DNA of 29,413 bases from a candidate division WOR-3 bacterium (GTDB taxonomy: Bacteria > Hydrothermota > Tepidihabitantia > Tepidihabitantales > DTDR01): assembly GCA_039801885.1 (NCBI GenBank), contig JBDRVN010000017.1, positions 1 to 29,413 of the forward strand. The letters are read 5' to 3'. The stretch's first letter is position 1, and every line of letters starts with the position of its first letter. The position numbers were made by a program, and so were the translations under genes. Below are positions 258 through 28,506 of this stretch, piece after piece. The notes under the pieces were generated by a model. The model had not been told where the DNA came from. It made no database searches and worked only from the letters and a program-made list of their open reading frames with translations.

Positions 258-1034
258 ATGAGATATTTGAGTTTTATTTTTTTAGGAGTTTTTGGTTTAT
301 CTTTTATTTTAAATGCGGGTGTGCGGATGGTAAGTGATTATGAGGATTATGAAGTAAAGGAAAAGGGAACTCATATTGGTTATATTGAAAAGGATAAGAT
401 GCGTTATGATGTGAAAACGGAAAAGACAGATATGGCAGTTATCTTTCGTGCGGATAAAGAGCTGTTTTGGTCTATTGATAATAAAAAGAAAACTTATATT
501 GAAATAACAAAGAGAGATATGGAAAAGATGAAAAAGAAAATGGAAGAAGGGATGGAGATGATGGAAGAACAATTGAAAAATCTACCGCCTGAACAGCGAA
601 AAAAGATAGAGGAGATGATGAAAGGTAAGACAAAGACGGAAGTTCCTAAAATAATTTATAAAAAGGTTGGAACCAGTGAGAAAGTTAATCAATGGGTTTG
701 TGATAAATACGAAGGGTTAGAAGGAAAAAATAAGGTGGAAGAGGTTTGGACTACTGATTTTTCTAAAATTGGTTTAAAACCAGAAGATTTAAAGGTTATG
801 GAAGAAATGGGAAAATTCTTCTCTCAGATGATGAAAGGAGTTTCTTTTTATAAGATACAGACCGAAAAGAAGGAAGATAAGTTTTTCGGCGTCCCTGTAA
901 GGATAATCGGTTATGACGAAGGTGAGAAGAAATTTAAAATGGAGTTAAAAGAGATAAAACGAGAAAATCTTGCTCCAACCCTTTTTGAGATACCAAAGGG
1001 ATACAAGAAAGAGAAGTTAGAGATTGAAGAATAA
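258..1034 (+). CDS. Exported DUF4412-like protein
   Basis: Signal peptide; helical insert MEEQLKNLPPEQRKKIEEMM; G..EKVNQWVCDKY; C-terminal LFEIPKGYKK typical of DUF4412/LolA-like fold proteins. Confidence 0.75.
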   Translation: MRYLSFIFLGVFGLSFILNAGVRMVSDYEDYEVKEKGTHIGYIEKDKMRYDVKTEKTDMAVIFRADKELFWSIDNKKKTYIEITKRDMEKMKKKMEEGMEMMEEQLKNLPPEQRKKIEEMMKGKTKTEVPKIIYKKVGTSEKVNQWVCDKYEGLEGKNKVEEVWTTDFSKIGLKPEDLKVMEEMGKFFSQMMKGVSFYKIQTEKKEDKFFGVPVRIIGYDEGEKKFKMELKEIKRENLAPTLFEIPKGYKKEKLEIEE

Positions 1035-1037
1035 AAG

Positions 1038-2231
1038 TTAATTCCTATAAAATTCAATTAATTTCTTTCTTATTATTAGTTGCTTCTCCCAATTTCCGTA
1101 GATTTTCCCTTTCGGAAGAAGTTCTTTGATTAGTTTTATTATTTCTTGATTATAAGAGAAATCTTTTAAACCAATTTTAAAAAGGGGTGTTTGAGGCAGA
1201 GGTATAAAAGTATGGAGGTGAATTCTTGCTCCTATTTTTATTAAATCTTTAATTATTTTTATTGTCTCTTTTATATCTTCTTCTTTTTCATTAGGAAAGC
1301 CAAAGATGAAGTCTAAATTTACCTTTAAATTATTTTTTATTGTTATTTCAGTTGCCTTATAAATATCTTCTATTTTATGTCCTCGATTTATCATTTTTAA
1401 AATCCTTTCGCTACCTGATTGGGCACCGATTACTAAATTATCGTTATCACAATATTTTTTTATTAAAGATATTGTCTCTTCATTAACAAATTCGGGTCTA
1501 ACTTCCGAAGGGAAAGTTCCCAAAAATATTCTTCCTTTATTTTTTATCAAATTTCTTATATTTTTCAAAAGTTTTTCTAATTCTGAATAGTTAATACTTT
1601 TGCCATCAATTGAACCATAGGCAAAACTATTGGGTGTGATAAATCTTATATCCCTTTTGTTATTTCTTATTAATATTTCAACCAGTTTTAAGATACTATC
1701 AATTGAGCGGTGTCTCATATTCTTGCCAAAAAGAAAAGGTGTTTGACAGAAATAACAGCCAAAAGGACAACCCCGAGATATTTCAATCGGTCCGAATTTC
1801 TTATATCTCTCACTAAAAGTTATAAATTTATCAAGATTTAAGACCTTTTTCCCATAAATTATCTTCTCTTCTTTTTTATCTTTTATTAAATCTAAAATTA
1901 TATATTCTCCTTCGCCACAAACCACATAATCAAAGCCGAAGTTTAAAACTTCTTTTGGCATTCCTGTTGGGTGCGGTCCACCAGCAATTTTAACTACGTT
2001 ATCCATCTTTAAACTTCCTATTTTCTCTATTAAATTTTTTATCTCAAAAATCTGGGTAGTAAAAAAAGAGAAAAGTAAAAACTTCTCTCCGTTTAGTTCT
2101 TTTAATAATTTTAATAAATCCTGTTCTTTTTTGGCAAAATAGATATTAAAATATTTTTCTAACAAAGGAATTAATGGATTGAAACTATACCGGTTATCCT
2201 TAGAGTAGTAAATAATAATATTAATTGACAT
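1038..2231 (-). CDS. B12-binding domain/radical SAM protein (MJ1487/TIGR04013-like)
   Basis: IAGGPHPT and VCGEGE cobalamin-domain motifs; EISRGCPFGCYFC CxxxCxxC; FPSEVRPE; GAQSGSERILK. Confidence 0.85.
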   Translation of the reverse strand: MSINIIIYYSKDNRYSFNPLIPLLEKYFNIYFAKKEQDLLKLLKELNGEKFLLFSFFTTQIFEIKNLIEKIGSLKMDNVVKIAGGPHPTGMPKEVLNFGFDYVVCGEGEYIILDLIKDKKEEKIIYGKKVLNLDKFITFSERYKKFGPIEISRGCPFGCYFCQTPFLFGKNMRHRSIDSILKLVEILIRNNKRDIRFITPNSFAYGSIDGKSINYSELEKLLKNIRNLIKNKGRIFLGTFPSEVRPEFVNEETISLIKKYCDNDNLVIGAQSGSERILKMINRGHKIEDIYKATEITIKNNLKVNLDFIFGFPNEKEEDIKETIKIIKDLIKIGARIHLHTFIPLPQTPLFKIGLKDFSYNQEIIKLIKELLPKGKIYGNWEKQLIIRKKLIEFYRN

Positions 2232-24709: not shown

Positions 24710-24759
24710 TTCCTAAATCTTAATTCCTCTTTTCGGTATCTAATAAATTGGAGGTCAAA

Positions 24760-27315
24760 ATGTTATTAGAGAAATTTACCCAAAAAGCTCAAGAAGCAAT
24801 AATTCGGGCTAAGGAACTTGCCGAAGAGAAAAGAAATCCAGAAATAAAGCCAGTTCATCTTCTTTTTTCTTTATTAGAAGACGAAGAAGGAGTTGTTTTT
24901 AAAATCCTTAAAAAGATTGGGATAAATTTAGAAAGATTAAAAGAAGATTTAGAGAACCTTTTAAAAAGAGAGCCGGTGGTAAGTTCTGCTACTGATGCCT
25001 ATGTTGGTTATGAAACAAAAAGGGCTTTGGATTCGGCATTAGAATGGGCAAACCAGATGAAGGATGATTATGCGGGAACTGAACATCTTTTTCTTGCCTT
25101 AATTGATAATGCTTCATTAAAAAATTTATTCCGAAATCATAATTTAACTCTTGATTTATTTTTAAGTGGTTTAAAAGAGATAAGAGGTCACCAAAGAATT
25201 ACTTCCCCGGATGCGGAAGAGACTTATGAAGCCTTATTAAAATTTGGCAGGGATTTGACGGAAATGGCGAAAGAGGGAAAACTTGACCCGGTTATTGGTC
25301 GAGAGGAGGAGATTAGAAGGGTTATTCAAATTCTATCAAGGAGAACAAAGAATAATCCGGTTTTAATTGGTGATGCCGGTGTCGGTAAGACGGCAATTGT
25401 TGAAGGGCTTGCCCAGAGGATTGTGAAAAATGATGTTCCGGAAAAATTAAAAGAAACAAGAATTTTTGCTTTAGATATGGGAGCCTTGATTGCTGGCACA
25501 AAATATCGGGGTGAATTTGAGAATCGTTTAAAAGCAGTTTTAAAAGAGATAAAGGCACAGGAAGGAAGAATTATTCTTTTTATTGATGAAGTTCATACCG
25601 TAGTCGGTGCTGGTGCTGCCGAGGGAGCGATGGATGCGGCAAATATTTTAAAACCGATGCTTGCTCGAGGAGAATTAAGATGTATCGGTGCAACAACCGT
25701 TCAGGAATATCGGAAATATATTGAAAAAGATAAGGCATTAGAAAGAAGATTTCAACCGGTATTTGTTAATGAACCATCAGTAGAAGAGACAATTTCCATT
25801 TTAAGAGGATTAAAAGAAAGATACGAAGTCCATCACGGAGTAAAGATTAGTGATTCCGCCTTAGTGGCGGCAGCCGTTTTATCAAAAAGATATATTTCTG
25901 ACAGGTTTTTGCCGGATAAGGCAATTGATTTAGTAGACGAAGCAGCAGCAAAATTGAAAATGGAGATTACTTCCAAACCGAAAAAGATTGATGAGATTGA
26001 AAGGAAGATTTGGCAGTTGGATATGGAGAGGATTTCTTTACAATCAGAAGATGATAAAGAGGCAAAAGAGAGGTTAAAGACAATTGAAGAAGAGTTGAAA
26101 AAATTAAAAGAAGAAAAACAAGAGTTGGAAAAGAAATGGCAAAAAGAAAAAGAATTTATTAGTAAAATTAATAAAATAAAAGAGGAGATTGAAAAGACTA
26201 AAAAAGAGATTGAGAAGGCAGAAAGAGTTTATGATTTAAATCAGGCAGCCGAATTGAAGTATGGAAAATTGACGAAGTTGGAAAAGGAATTGATAAAATT
26301 GGAAGAGGAGATAGAAAAGCTTGATAAAGATGGAAAAAGATTATTAAGAGAGTTAGTTACTGAGGAAGATATTGCTGAGGTTGTTTCTTTGTGGACGGGC
26401 ATACCGATAACAAAACTTTTGGAATCAGAAAAAGAGAAGTTAAAAAAGTTAGAGGACTATATTCATCAAAGATTAGTTAATCAAAAGGAGGCAGTAAAGT
26501 TAGTATGTGATTCAATAAGAAGGGCGAGGCTTGGTTTGAAAGAGGAGAAAAGACCAATTGGTTCATTTCTTTTCTTGGGTCCAACCGGTGTGGGAAAAAC
26601 TGAATTGGCAAGGACCTTAGCAGCCGTTTTATTTGACAGTGATGATGCGATGATTAGGATCGATATGTCGGAATATATGGAAAAACATAATGTTTCTCGT
26701 TTAATTGGTGCGCCACCGGGTTATGTTGGTTATGAAGAAGGCGGTCAATTAACCGAGGCGGTGAGAAAAAGACCTTATTCGGTTATCCTTTTTGATGAGA
26801 TTGAAAAAGCCCACCCGGATGTTTTTAATATCTTTTTACAAATTTTAGATGATGGAAGACTTACTGATGGTCAAGGAAGAGTTGTTGATTTTAAAAATAC
26901 AATAATTATTATGACTTCCAATTTGGGAACCGAGTTGATTAAAGAAGGGACAATAAGGAAGCAAGAATTGTTGACCCTGTTGAAAAGAAGTTTTCGTCCG
27001 GAATTCCTTAATCGGATTGATGAAATTGTGATTTTTAATCCCCTATCTTATGCTGATGTTCAAAAAATTATTGACATTCAATTAAATTTGCTTAAAATTA
27101 GATTAAAGGAAACGGGGGTAGAGTTGATAGTAGAGGAAAAGGTGAAAGATAAGATTGCCGATGAAGGTTTTGATAAAGAATTTGGTGCCCGACCATTAAA
27201 AAGAACAATCCAAAGACTTATTGAGAATCCTTTAACCAAATTACTTCTTGATGAAAAACCCAAAAAGATAACCGCCTATTTGGAAAACGGGGAAATAAAG
27301 TTTAAAAAAGAATAA
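24760..27315 (+). CDS. clpB: ATP-dependent chaperone ClpB
   Basis: Start moved to ATG 24760 (GGAGG at 24750-24754). Clp N domain; two AAA+ modules ([16 protein letters not shown]); long coiled-coil M domain including [20 protein letters not shown]; no ClpP-binding IGF loop. Confidence 0.95.
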
Positions 27316-27390
27316 TCTGCCGAGGGCGGGTTTTCATCCCTCCTTCCCCTCAACCTCGTAAATCCCTCCACTCGCCCTCGGCAGATTATT
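27311..27390 (+). other. Long GC-rich stem-loop at the clpB 3' end with a C/U-rich anti-SD-like loop (terminator/stabiliser or 3'UTR sRNA)
   Basis: AATAATCTGCCGAGGGCGGGT (27311-27331) pairs with ACTCGCCCTCGGCAGATTATT (27370-27390) with one G.U pair; 38-nt loop contains ATCCCTCC twice. Confidence 0.8.
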
Positions 27391-27391
27391 A

Positions 27392-27420
27392 TTGACTTTT
27401 CCACTTTTAAAAAATATAAT
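27392..27420 (+). promoter_or_regulatory. Sigma70-type promoter for the M23 peptidase (leaderless)
   Basis: TTGACT-17 nt-TATAAT, then 6 nt to the ATG at 27427. Confidence 0.8.
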
Positions 27421-27426
27421 TTTAAG

Positions 27427-28506
27427 ATGATAAAAATTTTTTTCTTATCCTTTTTACTTACTTATGAAATTTATGTTGTTAGAAAGAACGATACTCCTTC
27501 TAATATATTAGAAAAAAGAATTAGTCAAAAAAATTTAACGGAGAGGATTCTTAAATTTTTTTCATTACTCAATTTAACAAAAAATATTAACATCGGTGAT
27601 ACTTTTCTTTTTACTGATACTTTAATAATTTATAAAAAAGATATTTTTAAGACCTATTATTTTTACAAAAAAGAAGATTATGTGAATTTGGCAATGCCTT
27701 TTTATTTTCTTGTGAAAAATAAAAAAGTGGTAAAAGGAGAGATAGAAAATTCTCTTTATTTTAGTATGCTTTCTTTAAAGGAAACTCCGAAATTGGTAAG
27801 TAGCTTTGCTGAGATTTTGGAATGGGATATTGATTTCTTTACTGAATCCCATAAAGGTGATTCTTGGTTTTGTTATTTGGAAAAGGTTTATTTAGTAAAT
27901 ATTAATAATGAGACAATTCCTTATGATTACGGAAATATTTTTGCTGTCCGCTATAATGGAAAAGTTGGTAATTTTTATGGTTTTTATTATAAAGGTTATT
28001 TTTATGATTTTAAAGGACAATCTTTAAAAAGGGGATTTTTACGTTCGCCATTAAGATATTCTTATATTTCTTCCCATTTTTCTTTTGCCCGTTTTCATCC
28101 AATTTTAAAAATTGTCCGACCCCATTTAGGAACAGATTATGTCGCACCAAAGGGAACACCAGTTTCTGCCTTAGGGGACGGTCATGTAAGTTATATTGGT
28201 TATAAAGGTGGTTATGGAAATTTAGTAGAGATTACCCATCCTAATGGTTATAAAACAAGATATGGTCATTTATCAAGATTTGGAAGAAATATAAAAAGGG
28301 GAAAGAAAGTAAAACAGGGTGAGATTATTGGCTATGTTGGTCAGACAGGATTAGCGACAGGTCCCCATCTCCATTTTGAAGTGATAAAAGATGGCAGACA
28401 TATTAATCCATTGAAAATAAAAACTGCCCGATATAAAGTATTAACCAATGAAGAAATCAAAGAATTTCAAATAGTTAGAGATTCCTTAGTTAAAATCTTA
28501 CAATAA
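27427..28506 (+). CDS. M23 family peptidoglycan DD-endopeptidase (MepM/Csd3-like)
   Basis: ISSHF...RFHPILK..RPHLGTDY (HxxxD), GYGNLVEITH, TRYGHL, TGPHLHFE (HxH). Confidence 0.93.
   Translation: MIKIFFLSFLLTYEIYVVRKNDTPSNILEKRISQKNLTERILKFFSLLNLTKNINIGDTFLFTDTLIIYKKDIFKTYYFYKKEDYVNLAMPFYFLVKNKKVVKGEIENSLYFSMLSLKETPKLVSSFAEILEWDIDFFTESHKGDSWFCYLEKVYLVNINNETIPYDYGNIFAVRYNGKVGNFYGFYYKGYFYDFKGQSLKRGFLRSPLRYSYISSHFSFARFHPILKIVRPHLGTDYVAPKGTPVSALGDGHVSYIGYKGGYGNLVEITHPNGYKTRYGHLSRFGRNIKRGKKVKQGEIIGYVGQTGLATGPHLHFEVIKDGRHINPLKIKTARYKVLTNEEIKEFQIVRDSLVKILQ

Follow-up and report, generated by a model that had tools for sequence, protein, structure and literature searches.

In Staphylococcus aureus, RNAs such as RsaE and RNAIII pair with Shine-Dalgarno (SD) sequences by means of an unpaired C-rich UCCC motif. 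These UCCC loops are reported to act independently of Hfq (PMC2790875). Meanwhile, the small RNAs RoxS and FsrA of Bacillus subtilis have C-rich regions that pair over long stretches, with no known hub protein, with G-rich regions of a second non-coding RNA, the sponge RosA (PMC8216469). The cuckoo or CcsR RNAs of Alphaproteobacteria are presented as two to four adjacent small hairpins, each carrying CCUCCUCCC (PMC4615179), and in the icaR mRNA of S. aureus a C-rich anti-SD motif in the 3' UTR pairs with the mRNA's own SD and recruits RNase III (PMC3868564).

Here we describe a hairpin at the 3' end of clpB in a candidate division WOR-3 bacterium (genome G000, 1.56 Mb, 31% GC). The window is the whole stretch of DNA that was analysed, 29,413 nucleotides in length; families of one WOR-3 order are numbered f1 (that of G000) to f5, f2 being a sister family. 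The locus resembles the RoxS/RosA pair in that the C-rich loop of the clpB tail and a G-rich tract of a second RNA form a long predicted duplex, and a second RNA with such a tract was found with the exceptions of G011, G165, G170 and genus g2. It differs in that RoxS/RosA has no Rfam or sequence match to the WOR-3 pair, the Rfam covariance model of RsaE/RoxS giving no match to the element; in that the C-rich part is confined to a loop of 38-42 nt, carried by one stem at the clpB 3' end; and in that the partner is a 370-690-nt, boxA-led RNA with anti-SD motifs of its own, known here from sequence alone. Moreover, full-length RNase III was found in none of 13 WOR-3 genomes searched (G000 and 12 relatives), with RNase III-like partial matches of 157-175 aa in two f3 genomes only. 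The element shares with RsaE and RNAIII an unpaired C-rich motif able to pair SD sequences, and the conserved, unpaired SD-complementary motif of C-rich-loop anti-SD small RNAs is present (AUCCCUCCUUC); however, those are independent Firmicutes genes, whereas the WOR-3 element has no Rfam match and no identified mRNA target. As in the cuckoo/CcsR RNAs, an invariant anti-SD loop motif sits on variable, covarying stems, but the WOR-3 element is one hairpin with a very large loop carrying AUCCCUCCUUC(C/A)C and falls outside that group. It likewise falls outside the icaR type: the C-rich anti-SD motif in the 3' UTR is common to both, but most f2 clpB genes have no SD and RNase III was not found. 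Judged by analogy, the element works like the C-rich RNAs of the RoxS, RsaE and cuckoo types, while it is a member of none of them by their defining features.

The features of the locus are given below.

24715..24754 (+): predicted clpB promoter (AAATC ... TCTAA at 24739-24743) and SD GGAGG (24750-24754), from the sequence
24760..27315 (+): clpB, the host gene, 851 aa; TIGR03346 at 1275.5 bits, over the cut-off; the start ATG at 24760 is that of the protein-collection form
27311..27331 (+): hairpin 5' arm; conserved core 27318-27330, with 13 pairs, 6 of them with two-sided changes, and 98.9% of cells paired
27332..27369 (+): hairpin loop, 38 nt, nearly G-free; unpaired in single and consensus folds
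27336..27346 (+): seed ATCCCTCCTTC in the loop, containing the anti-SD CCUCCUU; invariant in 24/24 aligned sequences from three families
27331..27353 (+): loop segment complementary to the large RNA, 23 bp with one G-U and one bulge; partner G000:C10:38706-38729 (+)
27362..27369 (+): second ATCCCTCC copy, genus-specific
27370..27390 (+): hairpin 3' arm and U-rich tail; conserved core 27371-27383
27392..27420 (+): sigma-70-type promoter TTGACT-17-TATAAT with 11/12 consensus matches, conserved in same-genus genomes and serving the next gene

The stem is 21 bp long (27311-27331 with 27370-27390), contains the clpB stop TAA at 27313-27315 and has a sole G-U pair (27329/27372). These properties, together with the GC-rich stem and the 38-nt loop, are all visible in the sequence as the original prediction had described them. 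The predicted plus-strand fold has an energy of -36.45 kcal/mol (z -6.8), which none of 200 shuffles equalled, and it persists at 60 and 75 C; the clpB hairpin is the longest among 16 GC-rich stems found in G000. The outer 8 bp are almost entirely A-U and are lost in relatives, the conserved stem being the inner 13 bp. The claim that the single G-U pair favours folding of the plus strand agrees with the alignment of relatives, in which wobble pairs of the stem are U-G or G-U when read from the plus strand. The loop contains ATCCCTCC twice (starts at 27336 and 27362), and the 16S tail of G000 is GAUCACCUCCUUU. The prediction of a tandem anti-SD loop holds for the first motif, which is conserved in all families with the element. 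The second copy, retained as TCCCTCC in 6/6 genomes of the genus, is genus-specific; the other two families have CCCCCTT or CCCCCCT in its place.

A covariance model built from 24 sequences detected the hairpin in 41 of the 66 genomes of the order, at one locus each (G011 carries it on two contigs and was still counted once). By family, these were 6/6 genomes of f1, 34/44 of f2, 1/2 of f3, 0/4 of f4 and 0/10 of f5; weak model matches in f5 were tRNA-like and were discarded. The element was absent from all 124 genomes searched outside the order (strict filters, 151-genome phylum sample), G000 held no further copies, and viral contigs gave no matches to one strict pattern. All 34 copies examined sit 2-49 nt past the clpB stop. 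Metagenomes yielded 80 pattern matches, 55 of which passed a hairpin filter; by eye, one of the 55 proved to be something else. Of the remaining 54 true copies, 52 had clpB detected upstream. A pattern scan of contigs gave at least four true copies among the 80 loci listed, the rest being chance matches. Hence, the proposed search for copies in the genome and its relatives returned a single-copy element, always 3' of clpB where examined, and not the small dispersed repeat that had been suggested as an alternative. The Rfam scan that had also been proposed found no gathering-score match in the window, none relevant at E<=10 and none at the relatives' loci. Likewise, searches of open literature listings turned up no paper on the element or on WOR-3 small RNAs. 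A cultured WOR-3 strain exists (PMC12285271).

The loop is more conserved than the stem, and the case that had been named as fatal to the prediction, an unconserved loop, did not arise. In five same-genus genomes the element follows clpB in all, with an invariant 19-nt loop block. Among 24 genomes of other families whose DNA 3' of clpB was read, 12 have this seed, borne by another stem; the loop core AUCCCUCCUUC is invariant and unpaired in the consensus fold. The covariation of the 13-bp core tops 500/500 shuffles on three of five measures and is weaker on pair count (41/500 shuffles as good) and pair types, with 42-58% pairing in slid controls; most stem double changes represent one split between families, and the relatives are not independent. 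These data support the clpB tail as a conserved plus-strand RNA structure tied to clpB.

A feature acting at the level of DNA, or one tolerant of sequence, such as a G-quadruplex or i-motif, a Rho loading site, a dispersed repeat or a minus-strand GGA-rich CsrA decoy, would agree with the minus strand, which has at least four G3 tracts in all three families and folds as well (z -4.98). C-rich unpaired RNA also resembles a rut site. However, the element is single-copy, its wobbles favour the plus strand, and the invariant non-C positions of the seed are needed by neither G4 nor rut sites; in addition, a short ORF on the minus strand is frameshifted in G003. Hfq and CsrA were found in none of five genomes, the CsrA search controls being positive, and a CsrB/RsmZ-type minus-strand decoy was rejected on that ground. 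We judge this family of explanations to be very unlikely.

The surroundings of the stem bear on how the clpB transcript ends. It had been proposed that the hairpin is no ordinary terminator and has no clean U-tract. The first part stands: the terminator scan made no call, and the 38-nt loop and, in relatives, an offset U-rich tail depart from the 3-8 nt loop and immediate U-tract of a canonical intrinsic terminator. The second does not carry over to most relatives, which have a U-rich tail 0-4 nt past the stem. The sigma-70-type promoter directly past the stem, which serves a leaderless M23 peptidase gene starting at 27427, likely marks the 3' boundary of the clpB unit. In f2 and f3, a boxA-like sequence was observed 40-75 nt upstream of the element (e.g. 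L053, L056, L064, L066, L068, L399, L400). It is intact in G011 and split in 10 genomes (by eye) into GYTCTT, a small hairpin and ACAATY, an arrangement kept even where it overlaps the last clpB codons. Resembling the 3' half of boxA, ACAATY occurs ahead of the stem in 21 of 25 f2/f3 genomes, compared with 11 of 375 control windows. The presence of this half-motif suggests that Nus factors may be involved in transcribing the clpB tail; NusB was over the cut-off in 11 of 13 genomes.

The 5' end of clpB is also conserved in part. TCTAA lies close before the start in 18 of 20 relatives (by eye), and this promoter element (window 24715-24759; L267-L286), which may be of the ECF-sigma type, is conserved over four to five families. 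Meanwhile, clpB is SD-led in f1 and leaderless in most f2 genomes and in the f4 and f5 genomes read; no SD precedes its start in 8 of the 11 f2 genomes with the element. In f1, the GGAGG SD of clpB could be paired by CCUCC, so that an icaR-type control in cis, with the 3' loop folding back onto clpB's own SD, can be imagined. The missing SD in f2 rules out such self-pairing as a conserved function, and the f1 pairing is limited to 5-6 bp, which makes this reading highly improbable. A clpB mRNA that lacks an SD in most f2 would instead fit a host mRNA that escapes the loop.

A candidate partner emerged from a search for exact complements of the loop, which led to an intergenic region of genus g6 with 26/27 nt matching the f2 loop. 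This was the only other BLAST match of the f2 loop in each of three g6 genomes; it was considered as a paralogue of the element, a reading dropped once the strand was resolved. The region belongs to a large RNA whose counterpart in G000 is given below.

G000:C10:38460-38880 (= L308:1960-2380) (+): large boxA-led structured RNA; homologues L309-L313 and L374-L394

This RNA is about 370-390 nt long in f1 and 510-690 nt in f2, with modules in common. It begins at a boxA-like sequence, which is also seen before the 16S gene, and sits upstream of an unnamed lipoprotein gene of about 650 aa. The lipoprotein had no Pfam match in the portion scanned; its homologue in G000 was recovered by tblastx (2e-5), and homologues were found in 31/41 genomes. 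The large RNA has no Rfam match. Of its two strands, the one with the G-rich tract folds better (-92.3 vs -70.9 and -84.1 vs -56.2). In 5/6 f1 genomes it is preceded by a pattern of the sigma-54 type, following the general consensus of sigma-54 promoters. Several CCUCC motifs occur in it, one of which, CACCUCCUU, is identical to the 16S tail. It was found in 6/6 genomes of f1, 19/44 of f2 and 2/2 of f3, and by eye in one f4 genome. The f1 partner site lies directly ahead of a terminator-like domain and coincides with the SD and AUG of a short open frame (10-41 codons) in 6/6 genomes.

Several comparisons set this site apart. Among 10,050 G-rich windows scored out of 259,242, the best non-self partner of the f1 loop core in G000 was C10:38706-38729 (-39.1, next -29.4); no comparable outlier emerged when three further C-rich hairpins were scored by their loops. 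The loop of the own family outscored that of the other family in 14/14 orthologous leaders, and the remaining 16 leaders scored, including 10/10 from f5, where the element is absent, had no site. The site beat all 25 shuffles in 14/15 f2 and 5/6 f1 large RNAs, G176 being scored with another f2 element because its own was not found, and four further RNAs being scored without shuffles. In 13 of the 14 f2 RNAs that beat their shuffles it lies 173-204 nt from boxA, whose position was set wrongly for G166. Ranked against 620 background windows in each of four f2 genomes not belonging to g6, it outscored 620, 618, 620 and 620 of them. There is no site in G007, a genome with the large RNA and without the element, where 12/25 shuffles were as good. 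The match reaches past the SD core into family-specific flanks and is kept over genera of 50-68% GC. The f2 sites continue into the complement of the stem 5' arm, giving a contiguous antisense of up to 33 nt, and where the stem varies between A and G, the partner correspondingly has T or C (2 and 7 genomes). A second tract, matching the 3' part of the loop together with the beginning of the 3' arm, occurs in six genomes. The G-rich tract is predicted to be partly paired in cis, with an opening cost of 8.7-24.6 kcal/mol; after opening costs, the predicted net binding is negative in 19/19 pairs (-2.9 to -30.6). These comparisons demonstrate a specific 20-30-nt complementarity of the loop to a large non-coding RNA, which the original prediction had missed.

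The match has limits. Genus g2 has the element in 7/7 genomes and the large RNA in 0/7; this absence, and the detection of the large RNA in only 19/44 f2 genomes, indicate that the large RNA is not the sole constraint on the loop. That the loop stays invariant even in genomes without the large RNA points to mRNAs or a protein as further constraints. G011 (f3) has both RNAs and no good site (-25.6), sites are partial, degenerate or lost in G165, G026, G186 and G170, and in G012 (f4) a G-rich tract occupies the f1 position without a clpB element. The position of the site differs between f1 and f2. There is no clear excess of changes compatible with wobble pairing (A>G 8/119 and C>T 4/85 vs G>A 12/265 and T>C 2/111). 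The site of G020 had a duplex measure of -25.0 in the background test, with 103/320 windows as good, and of -38.2 with a finer step. When the whole loop and looser windows were used, the partner's lead narrowed to -39.6 vs -39.1 for a 16S rRNA stretch. A 16S stretch, GGGAGGAAGGUGGGGAUGA at G000:C2:37873-37895 (+), is also fairly complementary to the f1 loop, with -27.5 for the loop core, a complementarity that is probably due to chance.

The loop may act on mRNAs directly. By our own approximate start calls, 319 of 1328 starts in G000 have a strong SD and 186 look leaderless. The loop would pair with SD-led start regions (median -11.6 kcal/mol) and not with leaderless ones (+0.45), in agreement with the expectation that leaderless mRNAs would be spared; the 16S tail pairs with SD regions at -12.0, so that the loop is about equal and not stronger. 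Generic SD silencing by the loop is feasible in these models. The targets had also been expected to be mostly envelope genes, and here the data give enrichment only, with a hydrophobic N-terminus in 151/319 SD-led (47%) vs 66/186 leaderless (35%) genes (p 0.012). No conserved mRNA target was found: of 65 perfect 11-mer matches listed, 15 loci and two own sites were inspected and shared no target, and a 12-mer scan of five g2 genomes gave 10 non-self matches.

These observations could be explained by a generic anti-SD silencer alone, the match to the large RNA being a by-product of cis pairing or a decaying inverted copy. Such a silencer would account for the preference for SD-led starts, for the persistence of the element without the large RNA and for the mostly SD-less clpB of f2. 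For 161/298 SD-led starts in f1, the AUG can be covered by the loop as well, and the genome has three more big-loop CCUCC hairpins. Yet the best SD match of the loop, AAGGAGGG, precedes only 13 called starts, compared with 141 for AAGGAGG, and the anti-AUG hexamer ranks 4th of 30 permutations and is missing in f2. The match also extends well past the SD core into family-specific flanks, with cognate preference in 14/14 orthologous leaders, and is kept over genera of such different GC content. We regard the silencer alone as distinctly unlikely.

The extension of the f2 site into the stem allows the direction of control to be reversed. The hairpin would then be a cis element of the clpB mRNA (a 3' end, a terminator or a stability stem with a protein-binding loop), unzipped by the large RNA through a toehold and strand invasion that alter stability or read-through. 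The contiguous f2 antisense of the 5' loop and 5' arm, the second tract of six genomes, the U-rich tails after the stem and the ACAATY motif before it would fit such a mechanism. However, the second tract is predicted to pair in cis too, f1 sites leave the stem uninvaded, and a terminator needs no 38-nt loop. The element is also near-invariant while the partner site drifts or is lost, a pattern expected of a seed with multiple partners and not of one target site. Reversed control is unlikely in our assessment.

On balance, we lean towards the clpB tail hairpin being a base-pairing riboregulator that is sequestered by the sponge-like large RNA. This reading builds on the conservation and covariation of the hairpin, its position after clpB and its family-matched complementarity to the large RNA. 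The GC-rich stem is predicted to hold the C-rich loop open. The hairpin would be made with the clpB mRNA from a stress promoter, and would act either as a stable 3' fragment or within the intact mRNA. In cells without Hfq, the open 40-nt loop may nucleate pairing by itself and cover the strong SD regions of some mRNAs, from which leaderless mRNAs, clpB in most f2 included, would escape. The large RNA would bind the loop via 20-30 bp and, in f2, invade the stem at its top; since RNase III was not found, such a duplex would be stable and titrate both RNAs. Folding predictions also pair the G-rich tract with a CCUCC motif of the large RNA itself (-10 to -16 kcal/mol), so loop binding would refold this RNA as well. 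The invariant seed would thereby serve several partners, the large RNA being one of them, as a sponge.

A bolder and rather doubtful proposal is that WOR-3 bacteria, which would lack Hfq, CsrA and RNase III, rely on stable RNAs that form a network imitating both the SD and the 16S anti-SD tail. The clpB tail would be its heat-shock key, invading the large RNA and displacing an internal SD/anti-SD pairing. This would expose the anti-SD loops of the large RNA or change read-through into the lipoprotein operon, with leaderless stress genes still translated. A large bacterial non-coding RNA of unknown function would in that case gain a defined RNA ligand.

As a structured RNA the clpB tail is uncatalogued, and its unpaired loop of 40 nt is conserved to an unusual degree; it is rare for sequence comparison on its own to single out a specific RNA partner. 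If sequestration by the large RNA is true, it would extend the logic of C-rich small RNA and G-rich sponge from Bacillus to a distant phylum, tied to the 3' end of a chaperone mRNA. It would also illustrate how such control could operate without Hfq or RNase III, and offer a first clue to the function of a non-coding RNA of 370-690 nt. The pair could be tested in vitro with two transcripts, although the organisms are uncultured.

Other C-rich RNAs were observed in these genomes. A second big-loop hairpin lies just past a secreted choice-of-anchor J/Kelch gene (G000:C2:20151-20230 (-); L021:4152-4231); its loop carries CCUCCUU and CAUCCCUUC, a U-tract follows the stem, and it occurs in 5/5 same-genus genomes. 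A stand-alone rod-shaped RNA (G000:C4:about 900-1085 (+); L023) has its own sigma-70-type promoter and is convergent with rtcA; it presents two CCUCCUU motifs in a 59-nt loop and shows compensatory changes in G004. No 6S RNA was above the Rfam cut-off in G000. A fourth big-loop hairpin, with two CCUCC motifs (G000:C2:56442-56527 (+); L038), lies between a flavorubredoxin-like gene and degP/htrA and was found in 3/5 same-genus genomes. A tRNA-Sec was located at L021:1748-1838 (-). Finally, in an f4 genome we observed another kind of C-rich hairpin with a big loop (L304; G008:C28:9544-9569), followed by a CCUUCCCAAAAGGGAUAA hairpin that resembles one of the g6 large RNA.
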